Source: Planctomycetaceae bacterium
GTDB lineage: Bacteria > Planctomycetota > Planctomycetia > Pirellulales > UBA1268
Direction of reading: 5' to 3'
Length of the DNA stretch: 64,000 nucleotides
Assembly (NCBI GenBank): GCA_011523305.1
Contig: WTHB01000152.1
Location: 100,270-164,269, forward strand
Positions 5,307 through 64,000 of the stretch are shown piece by piece. Every line of letters begins with the position of its first letter. Position 1 is the first letter of the stretch. Both the position numbers and the translations under genes were made by a program. The notes under the pieces are model-generated. The model worked only from the letters and a program-made list of their open reading frames with translations, was not told the DNA's origin and ran no database searches.

Positions 5307-6335
5307 TTAATGGGGTGTCATCTCGCAGTCCGTGTCGGGCGAAACAGCCATGCCGACCTGATCAGCCGGATGCATGAACAGATACCGCCAGACCGGTTCA
5401 TGCAAATAGTTCCCCTCAGCATCCTTGCAGGCGTTGCCACCGGGAATCACGCCTGAATGGGCCCGCCGGCTGTCGCCACCCATGTCGCAGTCACTCATCA
5501 GCCGGCGGCTGTTGCCGTAGGGCGGTGGCGTCTGCTCGACGTTCACGAGCGGGCCGTATTCGTTCAGTCGCAGCAGCTGCCACGAGCGGCAGTAATGGTC
5601 CCGCGTCCAGCCGGTATCGAGCACATGGGTGAAGCCGAAGAAACGATTGAAAGCCGTGGCCGACGGTCCACCTTGCCAGGTCTCCGTATTGTCACGGGGC
5701 CCAGAGAACATCACGACGCGATCAACTGCCTGGTGCATCGCAAACCGGGCAGCGGTCGTCGACCCATGCGAGATGCCGGCCAGCGTCACCTTGCCCCAGC
5801 GGAGGTCGCTGCGGTCATCGGTGAGAAACTGCGCCCAGTTGCCCGCCGGGTTCTCGCGGTCAAGCCAGAGCAGAAACTGCCGGGCCCGCTCCCGCATGCT
5901 GTCAGGCTTCGGAATCGAAACGAGCGGACTGAAGTCTTCTCCGGTTGCAGCCTCCAGCCTCATTTTTCCCAGCACATCGCCCGAGTCGCGAATTTCCGGT
6001 GCGAGTGTGCCATACCACCGATTCGCATAGTGCACCTGGATTCCATGCAGGCCATACCCTGCAATCCGATCAAACAACGCAGCGTTGTGGGCCATCAGCC
6101 AAATCACCAGCCGCCCCTGGCTTGGCACGCTAGTATCAACCACCGCATGCTCGAGGTCAGCCGGCTTGTCCGTCTTGGGATCGATAAACGAAAAGCCGAT
6201 CTCCGGATGTTCACCAGCAGCTTTGTCGATTGCACTTGCCCGGGCGACCAAGTCATAACGGCGTCCCGGTTCTGCGGCGGCGGCAGTCACCATCACGGCG
6301 ATGCCAACAAGGCTGATGAGGCAGTAGAATCGCAT
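5307..6335 (-). CDS. Secreted alpha/beta-hydrolase-like protein, hypothetical
   Basis: The track ORF starts at TTG (6362). The ATG at 6335 gives signal peptide MRFYCLISLVGIAVMVTAAAAEP. A G-x-S-x-G nucleophile-elbow-like motif (GISHG) is present. Family is unassigned. Confidence 0.7.
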   Translation of the reverse strand: MRFYCLISLVGIAVMVTAAAAEPGRRYDLVARASAIDKAAGEHPEIGFSFIDPKTDKPADLEHAVVDTSVPSQGRLVIWLMAHNAALFDRIAGYGLHGIQVHYANRWYGTLAPEIRDSGDVLGKMRLEAATGEDFSPLVSIPKPDSMRERARQFLLWLDRENPAGNWAQFLTDDRSDLRWGKVTLAGISHGSTTAARFAMHQAVDRVVMFSGPRDNTETWQGGPSATAFNRFFGFTHVLDTGWTRDHYCRSWQLLRLNEYGPLVNVEQTPPPYGNSRRLMSDCDMGGDSRRAHSGVIPGGNACKDAEGNYLHEPVWRYLFMHPADQVGMAVSPDTDCEMTPH

Positions 6336-6394
6336 GAGGCTATCCTGTTCACATATGCACAATCGAATGGACTGAACAACACATCAACGCGACC

Positions 6395-7288
6395 ATGAAC
6401 ATACCTTCGCCGGAACAAACCACTCGCCGGAAATTCCTCCGTGACGGCACGCTGGTGTTGGCTGCCACATCGCCGGTTGCTCAGAGCCTTGCCGCGGCCA
6501 CGCCGGCAAGCCGGCTGCGGTTTGGACTGGTCACCGATCTCCACTACGCCGACAAACCGGCCGCCGGCACCCGCTATTACCGGGAGACCCTCGACAAGCT
6601 CGCCGAGGCGGAGGGCTGTTTCCGGGATGACTCGCTGACATTCATGGTCGAGCTTGGTGACCTGATCGACGCCGCCGACTCCATCGAGGCCGAACAAGCC
6701 TATTTGCGGCAGATCAATCAGGCTTTCTCCTCGATCTGTGAGGACCGTCACTATGTGCTGGGCAATCACTGCGTGCAGACGCTGCGGAAGGACGAGTTTC
6801 TTGATCAGGTCGGACAGAAACGCTCGTTCTATTCCTTCCGGCGTGCCGGCATCCATCTGATCGTCCTTGATGCCTGCTTTCGGCACGACGGCGTTCCCTA
6901 CGGCCGGAAGAACTTTCAATGGACCGACACCAACATCCCACCCGAAGAGCTGGACTGGCTCGCGGCAGAACTTGCCACTGGCGATGAGCCGGTGCTTGTC
7001 TTCGCCCACCAACGGTTGGACATCAGCGGCAACCACAGTGTTCGGAATCATGCCGCGGTCCGTCAGCGACTTGAGCAGTCCGGGCGGGTGCTCGCCGTGT
7101 TCCAGGGTCATAGCCATCACAACGACCATCGGGAAATCGGCGGCATCCACTACTGCACGCATGCCGCCATGGTGGAAGGCAGCGGTGCGAACAATAATGC
7201 TTACTCAGTTGTTGACATTCACGATGACGGAACGATCCAAATTGAAGGCTTCCGTCAACAACACTCTTACCACTGGCAGACCCACTAA
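6395..7288 (+). CDS. Metallophosphoesterase (calcineurin-like) with twin-arginine signal
   Basis: Tat-like RRKFLRDG plus hydrophobic stretch. Metallophosphoesterase motifs seen: LVTDLHYAD, ELGDLID, GNHC, VFAHQ, GHSHHN. Confidence 0.85.
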   Translation: MNIPSPEQTTRRKFLRDGTLVLAATSPVAQSLAAATPASRLRFGLVTDLHYADKPAAGTRYYRETLDKLAEAEGCFRDDSLTFMVELGDLIDAADSIEAEQAYLRQINQAFSSICEDRHYVLGNHCVQTLRKDEFLDQVGQKRSFYSFRRAGIHLIVLDACFRHDGVPYGRKNFQWTDTNIPPEELDWLAAELATGDEPVLVFAHQRLDISGNHSVRNHAAVRQRLEQSGRVLAVFQGHSHHNDHREIGGIHYCTHAAMVEGSGANNNAYSVVDIHDDGTIQIEGFRQQHSYHWQTH

Positions 7289-7291
7289 CTC

Positions 7292-8959
7292 ATGATGCGA
7301 ATGCTCCTCTTTGCCTGTCTCACCGCGGGCATCGGTCTGGTGACCGCAACCCACGCCGCTGACGACCCGATTCGACACCTGCAGATGGAAGCTGAACGGT
7401 CTGGCCGGGCCGACTGGGGCCACTGGGGCGACCAGCCAGGGACGTACGTGAGCTGGTCGAACCACTCCAATCGGCTGATCCCTGTCTACACCTTCGGGAC
7501 CGATCTCAGTGGGCTTCAGGGAGCAGGTAGCCCCTACCGTGATGCAGCGAAACTAGAAACTCTCTACGGTCAGCTGCCTGAGAACACCCTCAACCCCGAG
7601 GCTGACTACTTCGATCAGACCGATATCCACAGGCTGCAACTGCAGGCTGTCGCCGACGGCGCCCAGCGAGTTGTGTTGGTCGTCTTCGACGGACTCGACT
7701 GGCACACCACCCGCACGGCGGCGATCGCGGCAACCGGTCGCGTCCCCTACACCACGGGCCGCGGTGATGTCTTTGCCTTCCAGCGATATCGTGGGGCACC
7801 GACCGACTTTGGCTGGTGCGTGACCAGCCCAGCCAACAAGGGCACCACGTTTGACGTCGATGCCCAGATGGTTCCTACCCCCGGCGGCACCACCCCGGGG
7901 GGCTATGACGTTCGCCGCGGCGGCAGCACCCCGTGGGACCGCCTCGCCGACAGCCGCTATCTGATCGGCAAGGATCGGAGCTGCCCGCATGCCGTGGTTG
8001 ACTCAGCTGCCTCAGCCACCGCACTGTGCAGTGGCCGAAAGACGTACAACAAGGCCATCAACGTCGATCCGCAGGGCCAGCCGCTCGAACCGATCGGCAT
8101 CACGCTCCAGAAAGCCGGCTATGCCGTTGGCGTCGTCACCAGCGTGCCAATCTCCCACGCCACCCCGGCCTGTGCCTATGCCTGCAACGTCAGCCGCGAT
8201 GACTACCAAGACCTCTCCCGCGATTTGCTCGGCCAGCCCTCGATTTCCCGGCGAACGCCGCCCGCGCCGGGCGTCGATGTGCTCATCGGCACGGGCCACG
8301 GTGTGTCGGCAAAGGCCGACGACCAGCAGGGCCGCAACTTCGAGCCGGGCAACAAGTATTTGGCCGACTCAACGCTGCAGGCGATCGACGCAGCCCAGGG
8401 CGGTCGCTACCAGGTGGTGACCCGAACCGCAGGACGCCGAGGAAGCGAGGTTCTGACCGCAGCCGCCACCGCCGCCATCAAGACTGACCGAGGCCTGTTC
8501 GGCTTCTTCGGCACCGCTGATGGCCACCTGCCCTTCCAAACCGCCTGCGGCGACTACAACCCGCTCGGTGGTGAGATTGGAACAGAAAGAACTGCGGCAC
8601 TCCGCAAGAAGTACGCGCCCATCAGACCGTATACCGATGCTGATCTCACTGAAAATCCGACCCTCGCCGAGATGACCACAACCGCCCTCGACGTGCTTTC
8701 CAGCCGCGGCCCCTTCTGGCTGCTCATCGAAGCGGGCGATGTCGACTGGGCCTCCCATGCCAACAACATCGACACCGCCATCGGTGCCGTCTCCAGCGGA
8801 GACGCCGCCGTGGACGCCTTGTTTCGCTGGATTGAAGACCACGGGGGCTGGGAAGACACGGTGGTCATTGTCACCGCCGACCATGGTCACATGTTCGTGC
8901 TCGATGACGCCGAGCAGTTTGCCAAAGCCGCAGCCGGTCGCCTCCCAGCAGCTGAATGA
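7292..8959 (+). CDS. Alkaline phosphatase family protein (PhoA-like), secreted
   Basis: Signal peptide present. VVFDGLDW and VVDSAASATALCSG (DSAxSxTA nucleophile motif), plus C-terminal DWASHANN...TADHGH metal ligands. Confidence 0.85.
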   Translation: MMRMLLFACLTAGIGLVTATHAADDPIRHLQMEAERSGRADWGHWGDQPGTYVSWSNHSNRLIPVYTFGTDLSGLQGAGSPYRDAAKLETLYGQLPENTLNPEADYFDQTDIHRLQLQAVADGAQRVVLVVFDGLDWHTTRTAAIAATGRVPYTTGRGDVFAFQRYRGAPTDFGWCVTSPANKGTTFDVDAQMVPTPGGTTPGGYDVRRGGSTPWDRLADSRYLIGKDRSCPHAVVDSAASATALCSGRKTYNKAINVDPQGQPLEPIGITLQKAGYAVGVVTSVPISHATPACAYACNVSRDDYQDLSRDLLGQPSISRRTPPAPGVDVLIGTGHGVSAKADDQQGRNFEPGNKYLADSTLQAIDAAQGGRYQVVTRTAGRRGSEVLTAAATAAIKTDRGLFGFFGTADGHLPFQTACGDYNPLGGEIGTERTAALRKKYAPIRPYTDADLTENPTLAEMTTTALDVLSSRGPFWLLIEAGDVDWASHANNIDTAIGAVSSGDAAVDALFRWIEDHGGWEDTVVIVTADHGHMFVLDDAEQFAKAAAGRLPAAE

Positions 8960-59620: not shown

Positions 59621-60742
59621 TCAAGCTCCCGCCACATGGCCACTACAAATTGCCTCATAGAGCGCAAGGTGCTTCTTCGCCATATTCTGTTGTGAAAAAG
59701 TTTCGACCGCCCAATGGCGGGCAGTGGCTCGCCGACCTTCGGTAAGCGGATTTTGATCTGTTGCCCGCTCAATTGCGGCACAAGCATCCTCAGTGCTATC
59801 TGGAGTGAAGATTTCAGCGAATGGGCTTTGTGTATTTTTGTTGACTCGCAACGCTTCACAACAGCCACCAACTGGAGTGGACGCGATCACGCACCCCACC
59901 TGCATAGCCTCGACTAGCACGAGGGGCAGACCCTCACTACGCGACGAAGAGACGAAGACATCAACCGCCGACATCAGTGTCACAATGTCATTTCGAAAAC
60001 CAAGAAAATGCACCCGGTCTGGGATCTTGAGATCAACTGCTAATTTCTCCAGCTCAGCTCGTTTCTCGCCTTCCCCTGCAAGCCAGAGATGCCAGTTTTT
60101 TCCTTTCTCCACGCCCTTCGCAACTGCTCGAATAGTCGTGTCAAATCCCTTCACGGAAATCAAACTGCCCACACCGAGCAAATGCCGTGCTGGTGCTGAA
60201 TCATTAACTGCCGCCGCAGCCACAGTGAACATCTCATGAATTCCTGCAACCTGTTCTGCATGGACCTGCGGAGAGGGCAAACCACAGTGTATGACCGAAG
60301 TCTTTGCCCTCGGCAGGCCAACGGCCAAACAGGCATCACGTGCCGCCTCAGAAACACAGACAAGGTGTTCGGTGAGCCAACGGTGTTTCAGTGCATTCAC
60401 TCGGAAGATGGTATGCCGAATACCAATTCTCGGGATACAAAGACCCCAAGCCGCAATGCCACCTTGGGTAATCGCATGGGGATCATTCAGCACGAAGACA
60501 TCTGGCTTGTGGCGACGCACCCAAGACCGAACCTGTCGGCATGCTGGTCGCGAAAGGAAGTGACCCAGCACTTCGAAGTGCCTCAACCCAGGCCGTTGCT
60601 TCGCCCATGATGCCATTGGGCTACCATGCCGCGTGATGAGGGAGCTCTCGACTCCCAACTCTGCAATACTCTCAAGCAAATACGACAAAAGCAGCTCGCC
60701 CCCACCCCAGCCTTTCGCCATACTAAAAAAACAAACGTGCAT
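59621..60742 (-). CDS. Glycosyltransferase family 4 (GT-B, group 1)
   Basis: The C-terminal domain has LGVGSLISVKGFD, LWLAGEGEKR, VFVSSSRSEGLPLVLVEAMQVG (E-x7-E motif region). Confidence 0.85.
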   Translation of the reverse strand: MHVCFFSMAKGWGGGELLLSYLLESIAELGVESSLITRHGSPMASWAKQRPGLRHFEVLGHFLSRPACRQVRSWVRRHKPDVFVLNDPHAITQGGIAAWGLCIPRIGIRHTIFRVNALKHRWLTEHLVCVSEAARDACLAVGLPRAKTSVIHCGLPSPQVHAEQVAGIHEMFTVAAAAVNDSAPARHLLGVGSLISVKGFDTTIRAVAKGVEKGKNWHLWLAGEGEKRAELEKLAVDLKIPDRVHFLGFRNDIVTLMSAVDVFVSSSRSEGLPLVLVEAMQVGCVIASTPVGGCCEALRVNKNTQSPFAEIFTPDSTEDACAAIERATDQNPLTEGRRATARHWAVETFSQQNMAKKHLALYEAICSGHVAGA

Positions 60743-60750
60743 GTCTCCCC

Positions 60751-61572
60751 CTACAACCGCCCGCTAAGGTTAAAACGAGCGTAGACATCGCCGAAGACTT
60801 CGGCAGGCGCTTCGGCAAGTCGTTGCTTTATTGCATGGCCGCGAATCCACTGCGGCAAAACAAACTCAAGCGATTCACCATAACTAAGCTGAAACTCCGG
60901 CTCACCCAGCAGGCAAAGCTGATCGATGCACCGCAACGTACTTTCCAAATATTCTGGTGTAAATTCAAAGGACAACCCAGCAACTGGTCGTGAAAGTCCC
61001 GCGAGAACCTCATCCTCAAAACCTTCGACATCTATTTTTATAAAGACCGGCTGACCAAATCGCTCGATCAAGGAGTCGAGCGTCTGGATCTCGGTCCGTT
61101 GCCGCTCTGTCCAACACTCCGACCCAAAACGTCCCGTCTGCTGAACTGCCTCAACCCACCGTCGGGACAGTGACGACACTGTATGCGCCGTTGAGATATA
61201 CATCTCACCGATTTCAGCCTTCGCTCCAAGTGCTGCGCGAACAAGGTAGAAGTTCGGCGAGCGATGGAACACGCTTGCAAGAAAGTCACTGCAGCGATCC
61301 TGAGGCTCGATGGCAACGACCGCGGCTCCCATCCGGTGAAAGACCTTCGCTCTATTTCCAAGATTCGCACCCACGTCGAAGACAAGGTCTCTCGCTCCAA
61401 CAAATTGACTATAAAAGTCGGCTCGGCGTTGATCTTCATCAGTCCACTGCCGAAATTTGCGGCGATGTCGCCTTGCCGAGAGCGATTCTGCGAGGAACTG
61501 GATAAATTTTATCATCGTGGGGTTCTTATCTACGACAAAGTGTCCACGTGCAGCCATCCGAGCCCTAGTCAC
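60751..61572 (-). CDS. FkbM-family methyltransferase
   Basis: VFDVGANLGNRAKVF (SAM motif I) and FIKIDVEGFEDEVLAGL (FkbM signature). The start is uncertain: 61572, 61557 or 61515. The longest form overlaps the GT6 gene by 8 nt. Confidence 0.8.
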   Translation of the reverse strand: MTRARMAARGHFVVDKNPTMIKFIQFLAESLSARRHRRKFRQWTDEDQRRADFYSQFVGARDLVFDVGANLGNRAKVFHRMGAAVVAIEPQDRCSDFLASVFHRSPNFYLVRAALGAKAEIGEMYISTAHTVSSLSRRWVEAVQQTGRFGSECWTERQRTEIQTLDSLIERFGQPVFIKIDVEGFEDEVLAGLSRPVAGLSFEFTPEYLESTLRCIDQLCLLGEPEFQLSYGESLEFVLPQWIRGHAIKQRLAEAPAEVFGDVYARFNLSGRL

Positions 61573-62299
61573 GAATAGTGGCGTGATCCTTATCGAGAAG
61601 CATCAAGACGCACTCATAGTCAACTCCTTGCCTCGCCCACTCCTCATGGATTTCCGCATGATTCTGGGGCCAGTGAAATGAGGGCGAGAGGACCTTGACC
61701 GGAGGGTTGTCGATCAGATATCGATTCAGAACCGATTCATCATGCCACCGCGGTGTAAGGCCACGGCAGGCATCAGCATCGACCATCTCAACCGCTGTAT
61801 GGGTGAAGTCCCAGAAATCTTCATCCGAAAACCCCCAGAATCCGCCGCCGTAATAAACAGTACCTTCACTCCGGCGAACATAACTTCTCGACCGCCGATT
61901 CTTCTCGTACGTCCCTCTCTTCCCAACATAGCCACAATGTTGCACCGCCGTCCTATCACTCACGACGTCTGAGGCAACCACTTCTTTCATGAAGAGGCTG
62001 TCGACATCGACATAGAAGTGGTAATCACAAGTATGCCGCAGCCTAGTTTCGTATCGATTAAAGAAATGGAACCGATAGAGCGTCGGGTATGGAAAGGGTC
62101 GATGTTCGATGCGGTGGAAACGCAGACAATCCTTTTCGGCAGGCCGCTTAATCAATGCGTTGGCCTCTTCGATGCGGTCCGTGAAAATGCTGATCGACAC
62201 CTGCTCATCACATAAAAAATTATCCCAGATTGACGCAACCAATCCCTCCAGAAACTGAATGTACTTGTTGGTCGCAATGATTAAGACATTTACTCGCAC
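61565..62299 (-). CDS. Glycosyltransferase family 6 (ABO / alpha-1,3-Gal(NAc)-transferase-like)
   Basis: IIATNKYIQFLEGLV...ISIFTD, DYHFYVDVDSLF (DVD at 62000-62008), GTVYYGGGFWGFS, RWHDESVLNRYLIDNPPVKVLSPSFHW and KDHATIR parallel human GTA/GTB motifs (FAIKKYVAFL, VCVDVDMEF, FYYLGGFFGGS, VWHDESHLNKYLL..KVLSPEYLW). GTG start with AGAGAGG upstream. Confidence 0.85.
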   Translation of the reverse strand: MRVNVLIIATNKYIQFLEGLVASIWDNFLCDEQVSISIFTDRIEEANALIKRPAEKDCLRFHRIEHRPFPYPTLYRFHFFNRYETRLRHTCDYHFYVDVDSLFMKEVVASDVVSDRTAVQHCGYVGKRGTYEKNRRSRSYVRRSEGTVYYGGGFWGFSDEDFWDFTHTAVEMVDADACRGLTPRWHDESVLNRYLIDNPPVKVLSPSFHWPQNHAEIHEEWARQGVDYECVLMLLDKDHATIRD

Positions 62300-62335: not shown

Positions 62336-63139
62336 CTACGCAACTTGCACTGAGCCCGACTTCTCGACACGCTTCAAGCACGGGCTTTCATTTCCGCAGG
62401 TGCTACCCAGTGAGCCCTGCCTGTCTTCACTCCCACAAACAAAAATAGCATCACATTGCTTAAGTCGGCCTGTCTCGCTGAGGTGTGGGGCGTAAAAGTT
62501 GTGAAGCAAAAATCCATAGCTGCGCATCATGGCGAGAAACTCATCAAACGCTACCTGCTTGTCATAGCATGGCACCGCAATGATTTCAGCGTAGACGAGC
62601 CGTACAGCTTGTCGCCGTAGCATCCGCTCCGCTCCCCGCAATACCAGCGGCTCACAACCTTGCACATCGAGCTTCAGAACGTCGATCGCCTCAATACCCG
62701 TCACCTCACAAAAGGCATCGATTGTTGTTGTCGATACCTGCTCTACCCGCTCCGGCTGCACCAAATGCCCCCAATACTGACTAGCCTCTGCTGCCACCGG
62801 GAGAAGTGAATTCGTTGCGGAGTTGCCATTCACGGAATAGGGCGAGTCTCCTACGCAGTCCGACAGCGCTACCATGTAGGCATGGACGTTCGCGTCTTGT
62901 TTTGCAGTCTGCTCAAGCACTGCGAATGAAGCTGAAAATGGCTCGAAACTATAGATCGACGCTGATGGAAACAGCGCTCTGTATTCACGCACAGTTTCGC
63001 CGTAATGGGCACCGACATCAAAAATTACGCTCGGACCCGCCCCCCCAAGTAACCGCTGCTGTTCCACAAAGGGATTGAGCGGCACTGGCCGCAACTCCAA
63101 TCCCCTGTGCTTATACATCCAACGAATCAACTTTTTCAT
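62336..63139 (-). CDS. FkbM-family methyltransferase (second copy, divergent from the first)
   Basis: IFDVGAHYGETVREY (motif I) and VLKLDVQGCEPLVLRGA (FkbM signature). Confidence 0.8.
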   Translation of the reverse strand: MKKLIRWMYKHRGLELRPVPLNPFVEQQRLLGGAGPSVIFDVGAHYGETVREYRALFPSASIYSFEPFSASFAVLEQTAKQDANVHAYMVALSDCVGDSPYSVNGNSATNSLLPVAAEASQYWGHLVQPERVEQVSTTTIDAFCEVTGIEAIDVLKLDVQGCEPLVLRGAERMLRRQAVRLVYAEIIAVPCYDKQVAFDEFLAMMRSYGFLLHNFYAPHLSETGRLKQCDAIFVCGSEDRQGSLGSTCGNESPCLKRVEKSGSVQVA

Positions 63140-63745
63140 TGCGCGTTGCAGTCCTTAGGGATCGTTCGGTGGATTGCCCGGCTGTGAGATCTCGAGCGAC
63201 CTCGCAACCAATCTGCCCCCGCTCAGAAGAGCCAAAGTGACCACTTCGAGGTTAGCGGCTTGCTGAATAAATGGGCCCGAGGTGTTGAGGAAAGAGTACC
63301 GAAGCAGATTAGCAACCCCCGAAAATTGCATGCAAGAACACTTTCCGGAAGTCTTCCATCATTTCGTCGCTCGTCATCGCCTGAATTCGTATTGTGGCGC
63401 ATGCTCTGGATAAGAAAAATTCCTGGTGGTCTGTTTCCTGCGGGCTCATTCTCACGTCGCCTTCGCATCACTCCCCTGCCGAGCCTCTTTCCTCAAAAAA
63501 GAAACATGAATAGAAGAATGGGTGCTCTAGGGGAGTGCGGCAGCCTCCCGCCCTCAACACTCCTTTGGAAATGCCTTCGGCTGCCTCGTGTTGCCGCCAT
63601 CATCCTCTTCGAGCAAGACAACTTACTGGCCTACGTGCAAATTCAGTCGGATTCCACCGACCGGAAGTGCCTTCATCAAAATTGATGTCACGATCCGATT
63701 CCCAACCACGAAGCCCCTCGCTCGCTCCACGTGTCAGAACATCCA

Positions 63746-64000
63746 ATGAACACTCCTCAGTTCAGCTTCGTGCTCCCAATTTACAATGGGGCGGTTTATC
63801 TCCGTGAAGCCCTCGCCAGCCTACGATGGCAAACGCTACGAAACTGGGAATGCCTCTGCATAAATGACGGATCGACTGATGGCACCGACATTATCCTTGA
63901 AGAGTTTGCAGCGGCTGATGACCGTTTTCGGATCCTGCATCAAGCAAACGCCGGAATAGTTGCTGCACTCAATCGAGGTATCCGTGAAGCTCGTGCTCCA
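63746..64000 (+). CDS. Glycosyltransferase family 2, N-terminal part (runs off the right edge)
   Basis: MNTPQFSFVLPIYNGAVYLREALASLRWQT...CINDGSTDGT...AGIVAALNRGI is the canonical GT2 (GT-A) N-terminus. It is not in the ORF track because it is truncated. Confidence 0.8.
   Translation, partial: MNTPQFSFVLPIYNGAVYLREALASLRWQTLRNWECLCINDGSTDGTDIILEEFAAADDRFRILHQANAGIVAALNRGIREARAP

Follow-up and report, generated by a model that had tools for sequence, protein, structure and literature searches.

A minimal DXD-type GT6 glycosyltransferase in a planctomycete, encoded in a probably mobile cassette with GT11 and FkbM genes

We analysed a 64,000-nucleotide stretch of contig WTHB01000152.1 (assembly GCA_011523305.1, Planctomycetaceae bacterium, Pirellulales), referred to below as the window, and in particular one gene near its end that encodes a glycosyltransferase of family GT6. 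The gene adds one more ordinary member to the already described clade 1 of this family, whose enzymes consist of a minimal catalytic domain with an intact D-x-D motif (DXD). Taken as a whole, the reading that we consider likely is that of a metal-dependent clade-1 GT6 in a laterally acquired cassette with GT11 and FkbM genes. It would complete a blood-group-A-like cap, GalNAc-alpha1,3-(Fuc-alpha1,2)-Gal (N-acetylgalactosamine, fucose, galactose), which is possibly methylated. The family membership, the fold, the motif positions, the gene neighbourhood and the patchy distribution are direct observations. The gene is the following:

61565..62299, minus strand: GT6 glycosyltransferase, minimal catalytic domain (244 aa; PF03414 at 100.8 bits)

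The open reading frame (ORF) starts with GTG, runs intact for 244 codons and has a Shine-Dalgarno-like run, AGAGAGG, 7 nt upstream of the start. An earlier note, made from the letters of the window alone, had called a 244-aa GT6 enzyme here, and this call holds. The Pfam profile Glyco_transf_6 (PF03414) matches residues 3-214 with 100.8 bits, far over the cut-off of 25 (E=8e-29). A sequence search of the PDB returns BoGT6a as the best match (E=1.6e-27), with human GTA and GTB at about 2e-23. Every motif quoted in the note is present: ATNKYIQFL at residues 9-17, YVDVDSLF at 96-103, TVYYGGGFWGFS at 147-158, RWHDESVLNRYL at 184-195 and VKVLSPSFHW at 201-210. The NCBIfam model NF041524, for the Gltr_6 subfamily, gives 138 bits, which is under its curated cut-off of 250.

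The N-terminus, MRVNVLIIATNKY, pairs residue by residue with the start of BoGT6a, the alignment beginning at residue 1 of both proteins, and the C-terminus lies 7 residues past a conserved Lys. The product is the catalytic domain alone, with no N-terminal stem, transmembrane segment or C-terminal BHB domain. An AlphaFold2 model, with a 70-sequence alignment as input, reached a mean predicted local distance difference test (pLDDT) of 97.1 and a predicted template modelling score (pTM) of 0.93. Foldseek with this model placed BoGT6a, GTA and alpha3GT at the top, with template modelling (TM) scores of 0.80-0.89 (0.82-0.89 for BoGT6a and human GTA) and E around 1e-22. A copy 96% identical to the protein is present in another data set. 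The ORF is a genuine, intact member of the family, and it probably encodes an active enzyme. The protein is predicted to be a retaining GT-A transferase of the cytoplasm; it has no leader peptide and should act there. A pseudogene was considered and rejected, as the frame is intact and the invariant catalytic residues are all kept.

As for the active site, residue correspondences were read from printed HMMER alignments, with GTA numbering taken as chain index + 62 and this offset verified on DVD, His233 and Leu266. The key residues of the planctomycete enzyme are D98-V-D100, G151-G-G153, W185-H-D-E188, K237 and R243. The DVD triplet (window 62000-62008) falls on D211-V212-D213 of GTA and on N95-A96-N97 of BoGT6a, and thus stands at the metal-binding position, as had been proposed. 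Neither of the two sequence results that the note had named as refuting it, a missing HMM match or a DVD away from this position, was therefore obtained. G151-G152-G153 falls on L266-G267-G268 of GTA and on A155-G-G157 of BoGT6a. The alignment therefore also bears out the placing of Gly151 and Gly153 at the donor-selecting positions Leu266 and Gly268. W185-H-D-E188 corresponds to GTA 300-303, with E188 equivalent to E303 of GTA and E192 of BoGT6a, and H121, G123 and T130 correspond to His233, Gly235 and Thr245 of GTA. The contacts of BoGT6a with UDP and sugar are kept at I8, T10, Y13, T73, R76 and W185-H-D-E188. Seven columns are invariant in the 70-sequence alignment (D98, D100, H121, Y149, G152, E188 and K237). 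In 17 of the 120 closest homologues H-N-D-E replaces the near-universal W-H-D-E acceptor/donor loop, and this may mark a sub-lineage whose sugar recognition is altered.

K237 and R243 are spaced by +6, as are K359 and R365 of alpha3GT, and an Arg occupies the R243 column in most DxD loci. According to Pham et al. 2014, this Lys/Arg pair (K359/R365) is conserved in metal-dependent GT6 and not in the GT6 enzymes with NXN in place of DXD. The characterised enzyme PaGT6 (Parachlamydia) transfers GalNAc onto the H trisaccharide and 2'-fucosyllactose and is strictly Mg2+- or Mn2+-dependent (PMC3516806), a metal-dependence result that Pham et al. 2014 repeat. Metal dependence of the planctomycete enzyme is predicted from its DXD and by analogy with PaGT6. 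A metal-independent NXN reading of the BoGT6a type was rejected, as the motif is DVD and the protein has no C-terminal extension. In the catalysis that we propose, a divalent cation on D98 and D100, either Mn2+ or Mg2+, would bind the UDP-sugar, and the C-terminal K237 and R243 would close over the diphosphate. E188 would be the essential catalytic-site carboxylate, and the sugar would be transferred with retention to O3 of galactose.

In terms of distribution, the DXD motif is the rule among the relatives of this enzyme. D-x-D is found in 120/120 of the closest homologues (DAD 71, DVD 47, DSD 3). An exhaustive search of 50%-identity cluster representatives gave 1,930 GT6 clusters, 1,095 of them at E<1e-10. 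Domains from the best 150 representatives comprise 151 with DxD, 1 with DxN and 5 gapped at the motif column. The donor triplets in this set are AGG (53), GGG (45) and CGG (29). Among the GT6 ORFs of the fetched loci, which come mostly from named genomes, 86/92 have DxD, and the 3/92 with NxN belong solely to Bacteroides and Clostridia.

A search of named genomes with the single protein gave no match, while the alignment-based search did find relatives. In the species genomes of GTDB, the latter returned 440 stretches that encode a GT6 relative. These belong to Dependentiae, Chlamydiota, Pseudomonadota, Planctomycetota, Verrucomicrobiota, Bacteroidota, Bacillota and Acidobacteriota, with one in Woesearchaeota. 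GT6 is present in about 0.2% of species and is hence rare per genome and patchy, in line with what had been supposed.

DXD is the ancestral and common state of bacterial GT6, and NXN is a derived, gut-associated exception. Thiyagarajan et al. 2012 (PMC3516806) had split GT6 into three clades, of which clade 1 holds the minimal-domain DXD enzymes of prokaryotes and phages. Two claims of the earlier note fail here. It had held that the characterised bacterial members are all NXN, yet PaGT6, a DXD-type and metal-dependent enzyme, was published in 2012 (PMC3516806). It had taken the DVD as a special, vertebrate-like trait, yet the counts above make it the usual one. The GGG triplet is likewise the norm of the subclade, with 118/120 of the closest homologues carrying it.

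A maximum-likelihood tree of 102 sequences, with support from the Shimodaira-Hasegawa-like approximate likelihood ratio test (SH-aLRT), places the planctomycete enzyme in a clade of 22 rows (SH-aLRT 100). Its members are nearly all metagenome proteins, and the close ones all have GGG. This clade is sister, with weak support (80), to the cyanophage P-SSM2 and a metagenome-assembled genome (MAG) of Pirellulales. A large group of Chlamydiota and Dependentiae, the NXN clade that includes BoGT6a, and human GTA, whose branch is very long, are placed elsewhere in the tree. The subclade is recognised by DVD, GGG, HCG and LLDK..R, compared with the commoner DAD, AGG, HPG and ALDK..R. A specifically vertebrate-derived gene was rejected, as the tree groups the enzyme with phage and environmental sequences.

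Some variation in architecture was found around this clade. Many of its GT6 domains form part of larger multi-domain proteins (450-1,300 aa), of which some have two GT6 stretches; examples are P0124 (1,191 aa), P0129 (1,263 aa) and P0256 (1,294 aa). In about 30 representatives, GT6 is at the C-terminus of a protein of 840-990 aa. Among the named genomes, several have two GT6 paralogues within a few kb (loci L024, L022 and L037), those of L022 being in tandem at 5732-6511 and 6502-7329. In such pairs, one of the two copies shows altered motifs at the acceptor site (HPC; IVQK before the Lys).

The gene lies in a low-GC island of roughly 9 kb that extends beyond the window end; in window coordinates it spans about 59.3 to about 67.8 kb. 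The contig is 179.6 kb long, and the genome has 3.49 Mb in 195 contigs with a GC of 0.615. Island genes have a GC of 0.48-0.56 and a GC at third codon positions (GC3) of 0.51-0.58, compared with a GC3 of 0.66-0.69 in the flanking genes. The AT-richer island described from the letters is therefore real. The other features of the island are given below; those beyond the window end were located in L002, where adding 56730 to a coordinate gives the window coordinate.

59621..60742, minus strand: GT4 glycosyltransferase that ends the minus-strand run and opens the island (PF00534 97.5 bits, PF13439 57.9 bits)
60751..61572, minus strand: FkbM-family methyltransferase directly downstream of GT6 (PF05050 41.7 bits, TIGR01444 80.6 bits)
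62336..63139, minus strand: FkbM-family methyltransferase upstream of GT6 in the operon-like run (PF05050 80.7 bits, TIGR01444 85.7 bits)
63140..63730, no strand: divergent intergenic spacer of 591 nt between the FkbM-GT6-FkbM-GT4 run and GT2 (GC 0.538, no ORF matching a family)
63731..64000, plus strand: GT2 glycosyltransferase cut by the window end, in full 63731-64795 (PF00535 109.9 bits)
64914-65807, minus strand: gene of the GT11 alpha1,2-fucosyltransferase family, beyond the window (PF01531 107.3 bits)
65932-66714, minus strand: second GT2, beyond the window (PF00535 107.5 bits)
66824-67693, minus strand: 289-aa protein, possibly a pyruvyl transferase, beyond the window (PF04230, weak at 17.4 bits)

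With the GTG at 61572 as its start, the downstream FkbM gene would overlap GT6 by 8 nt; an alternative ATG is at 61515. The spacer presumably holds promoters. A scan for sigma-70 consensus promoters and terminators gave nothing above chance, including in this spacer. By the standards of this genome the spacer is long, and regulatory elements may lie in it.

The GT11 gene is 2.6 kb from GT6. Its product contains HVRRGDY at residues 166-172 and the blocks GGLGNQLFQYA and ANSSFSWWGAWL, all of which we take to be hallmarks of alpha1,2-fucosyltransferases. As for a supply of GDP-fucose, four gmd genes score over the cut-off of TIGR01472 (499-576 bits) in the genome, outside the window:

C63:770-1810, C132:9113-10090, C31:44644-45609 and C87:11445-12407: gmd genes

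A fifth gmd-like gene is also present, and gmd forms a pair with an fcl-like gene on C87. Having several gmd genes suggests a heavy use of GDP-6-deoxyhexoses in multiple glycan loci.

The combination of GT11, FkbM and GT6 recurs. GT11 is found within a few genes of GT6 in 6/6 examined contexts of the enzyme's own clade (the window, L003-L005, L006, L094, L095 and L096) and also in P-SSM2. FkbM stands directly beside GT6 in P-SSM2, L095, L006 and the window. In P-SSM2, GT6 (PSSM2_268) is three genes downstream of GT11 (PSSM2_265), among GT2 and GT1 genes, and the gene just before GT6 is an FkbM by Pfam (65 bits). The contigs of P0012, P0014 and P0068, which are more distant members of the enzyme's clade, have a GC of 47%, 31% and 25% and carry GT11 one to three genes from GT6. 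The contig of P0068 (L096) is clearly from a phage and encodes RIIA (191 bits), Gam, Gp157 and ThyX. For the contigs of P0014 and P0012, the PHROG matches were too few for a phage call, so that L096 alone is clear. GT11 is otherwise rare: across whole genomes, it is found in 4/41 related genomes and 0/14 control genomes.

On this T4-like phage contig of 25% GC, a fusion of 512 aa that joins GT11 with a GT2/GT7C-like part (L096:9702-11240) comes right after GT6. The gene next after it is of the Stealth family, which makes a compact phage glycan cassette.

The low GC3, the absence of GT6 in relatives and the broken synteny on both sides of the island support the lateral acquisition that had been suggested. 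GT6 was absent in 40/40 relatives searched, 20 of them from the same genus. The island is flanked by a PQQ-type beta-propeller gene and by a fusion of rhodanese and pseudouridine synthase. In the two nearest species (G010 and G020), these two genes lie apart on separate contigs, each next to other genes, and the island genes are absent. A clean empty site was sought in the genomes of the same genus, which are fragmented MAGs; this gave only broken synteny and no exact insertion site.

The closest homologues among named genomes and long contigs are on a Planctomycetota MAG contig (GT6 73% identical) and an ENA contig (GT6 68%). Both contigs come from close relatives, with sucC, sucD, a CCG-domain protein and gmd being 86-92% identical and MetH 90%. 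Their cassette genes are merely 37-73% identical and are at other chromosomal sites, one beside gmd and sucCD and the other near metH. The core order is kept as GT11, GT2, (FkbM), GT6, (FkbM), GT4. GT4 orthologues follow GT6 in L003 (65% identity) and L006 (55% identity), and both FkbM orthologues hold the same positions in L006. Since the cassette genes have diverged and relocated against a housekeeping identity of 86-92%, they appear to form a movable, fast-diverging surface-antigen cassette. The composition and the comparison of loci support an accessory cassette of lateral origin, from a source of lower GC, which phages and aquatic bacteria would exchange. A role as a variable determinant of surface antigens or phage receptors is likely.

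Two genes next to the island were also observed. The fusion on its far side (L002:11101-12951, plus strand; window-equivalent 67831-69681) is a 616-aa protein that joins a UPF0176/rhodanese part with an RluA-type pseudouridine synthase. It is matched over its full length solely in G010, G020, G018 and G008. Other genomes of the same genus match about residues 20-300 at about 39% identity, and the fusion seems lineage-specific. Beside it is an ABC1/UbiB-family kinase (L002:12967-14520, plus strand; window-equivalent 69697-71250), whose only named homologues, at about 50% identity, are those of Methylobacter and other Gammaproteobacteria; closer matches reach 76-91%. This kinase may be foreign in origin, though its GC is native-like.

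From these observations we infer the metal dependence discussed above, and likewise the donor, the acceptor, the methylation target and the biological role. With regard to the donor, small triplets set GalNAc specificity in this family, as in AGG of BoGT6a and the AGGL mutant of alpha3GT, and LGG of GTA also goes with GalNAc. The Gal-specific enzymes are bulkier there: GTB has Met and Ala, and alpha3GT has His-Ala-Ala. Because GGG is even smaller than the AGG and LGG of GalNAc enzymes, a preference for UDP-GalNAc is expected. The open pocket at G151-G-G153 would favour this donor, and UDP-Gal may possibly be accepted too. With regard to the acceptor, H121, G123 and T130 match the fucosylated-acceptor (ABO) type and not the Gln/Trp of alpha3GT. 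These residues and the adjacent GT11 lead us to propose Fuc-alpha1,2-Gal as the acceptor, which would give an A-like cap. The genome's gmd and fcl-like gene would supply GDP-fucose to GT11, which would make Fuc-alpha1,2-Gal, and GT6 would add alpha1,3-GalNAc to the fucosylated galactose. GT6 would work on a lipid-linked or nucleotide-independent intermediate of a glycan that may belong to LPS, an exopolysaccharide or a glycoprotein, and the flanking FkbM enzymes would probably O-methylate a sugar of the cap. The alpha-GalNAc epitope proposed from the letters, A-like or Forssman-like, remains plausible in its A-like form, and the GT11 past the window end supports it. The Forssman-like form is less likely, given this neighbour and the equivalents of His233 and Gly235.

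Several points weigh against the favoured reading as a whole. GGG could bring a relaxed or a different use of donors. The human mutant with Gly266, named cisAB in PDB titles, is a dual-specificity form. GT11 lies within 8 kb of GT6 at just 18/80 loci in more distant named genomes, and the pairing is not universal. L234 was put at the position of GTA Ala343 and BoGT6a Ile228 by motif spacing from K237, and not from the printed alignments. Genes for a flippase, a polymerase, a transporter or a priming transferase are absent in the island. On NF047922 the fcl-like gene reaches 268 bits, short of the cut-off of 500, and the source genome is an uncultured MAG.

A galactosyltransferase or an enzyme of dual donor use, with the same fold and metal dependence, would make a B-like Gal-alpha1,3-(Fuc-alpha1,2)-Gal or a mixed A/B cap. 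H186, D187 and E188, which recognise galacto-sugars, are conserved and serve both donors, the open pocket leaves room for the smaller UDP-Gal, and in E. coli O86 a GT6 (WbnI) with a GT11 leads to the B antigen, as cited in PMC3516806. We still rate this as unlikely, as Gal-specific GT6 such as GTB and alpha3GT have bulkier residues where small ones go with GalNAc, and PaGT6 transfers GalNAc. It is quite improbable that the acceptor is other than a fucosylated galactose, be it an unfucosylated Forssman- or alpha-Gal-like glycan or a Ser/Thr-rich protein, with GT11 acting on a different branch. The sparse pairing at distant loci speaks for it, as do Leu234 and Cys122 (Ala and Pro in most proteins of clade 1), so that the acceptor pocket is somewhat different. 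Against this, the equivalents of His233, Gly235 and Thr245 are of the ABO type, unlike the Gln/Trp of alpha3GT, all examined contexts of the enzyme's own clade have a neighbouring GT11, and the island holds no protein with a Ser/Thr tract.

The island is compositionally foreign in a MAG of 195 contigs, which could be taken to mean that the gene is a non-functional passenger, either a decaying remnant of a cassette or an artefact of assembly or binning. We give this very little weight. The frame is intact with a Shine-Dalgarno-like site, the catalytic residues are those invariant in the family and pLDDT is 97; a second copy, 96% identical, is in another data set; and genes of native composition stand on both sides of the island in one contig of 179.6 kb. 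Lastly, the GGG subclade would, in a more far-reaching proposal that we regard as a long shot, be a functionally distinct GT6 lineage whose wide-open pocket takes a donor different from plain UDP-GalNAc or UDP-Gal, for example a bulkier 2-N-acyl or otherwise modified hexosamine. With GT11 and the always-adjacent FkbM it would build a methylated blood-group-like cap, and the module would be shuttled between T4-like phages or cyanophages and aquatic bacteria as a phage-driven receptor switch. Such a switch of surface receptors would serve superinfection exclusion or serotype conversion.

The sequence observation of the earlier note is thus confirmed and its interpretation partly supported. These results correct a common textbook impression, in that DXD is the normal form among the GT6 enzymes of bacteria and phages in current sequence data, with the NXN form of gut bacteria as the exception, and they add a planctomycete host to the DXD clade. 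The locus is also a clear example of a movable, fast-diverging GT11-FkbM-GT6 module that cyanophages have as well, which helps in understanding the spread of blood-group-like glycans among environmental microbes and phages. Known principles are unchanged, and the GGG subclade and its conserved FkbM partner are the only points with possible novelty. For glycan synthesis, new alpha1,3-GalNAc/Gal transferases may reasonably be sought in this uncharacterised subclade.

Among known systems, PaGT6 (Parachlamydia acanthamoebae) and the GT6 of P-SSM2 are most alike in build, being minimal domains of about 230-245 aa with an intact DXD, as is the planctomycete enzyme. The P-SSM2 enzyme is 36% identical to it, and both have GT11, FkbM, GT2 and GT1/GT4 neighbours. 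The planctomycete enzyme differs from these two in its separate subclade (SH-aLRT 100), with GGG and not AGG, HCG and not HPG, and Leu, not Ala, three residues before the conserved Lys. Its host is a planctomycete of the Pirellulales type, and its GGG subclade has no characterised member.

BoGT6a (Bacteroides ovatus, PDB 4AYJ and 4CJ8) is the best PDB match in sequence, with 29% identity, and in fold, with a TM score of up to 0.89. The two proteins begin at the same position and agree in the residues that contact UDP and the sugar. BoGT6a is a GalNAc transferase of the A-antigen type that acts on 2'-fucosyllactose. It has N95-A-N97 and is metal-independent, whereas the planctomycete enzyme has D-V-D. 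BoGT6a also has a C-terminal membrane-association segment, whereas the planctomycete enzyme ends right after the catalytic domain. Furthermore, Lys231 and Arg243 are spaced by +12 in BoGT6a, compared with +6 here, as in metal-dependent enzymes.

Human GTA and GTB and bovine alpha3GT share the GT-A fold. The DVD of GTA at 211-213, its WHDE at 300-303 and its His233, Gly235 and Thr245 are all matched, and its C-terminus follows K-x-H-x-x-x-R, a pattern that is also found here. Identity is about 25%, and the planctomycete enzyme differs in having no stem or transmembrane segment and a Gly at the position of Leu266. Finally, WbnI (GT6) and WbnK (GT11) of E. coli O86 follow the same logic, with a GT11 alpha1,2-fucosyltransferase and a GT6 from one surface-glycan gene cluster that make a blood-group-like determinant (cited in PMC3516806). 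The planctomycete island differs from that locus in having no export or polymerisation genes and in adding two FkbM methyltransferases. WbnI is a galactosyltransferase of the bacterial NXN type, and the O86 cluster is a classical Wzx/Wzy O-antigen locus.

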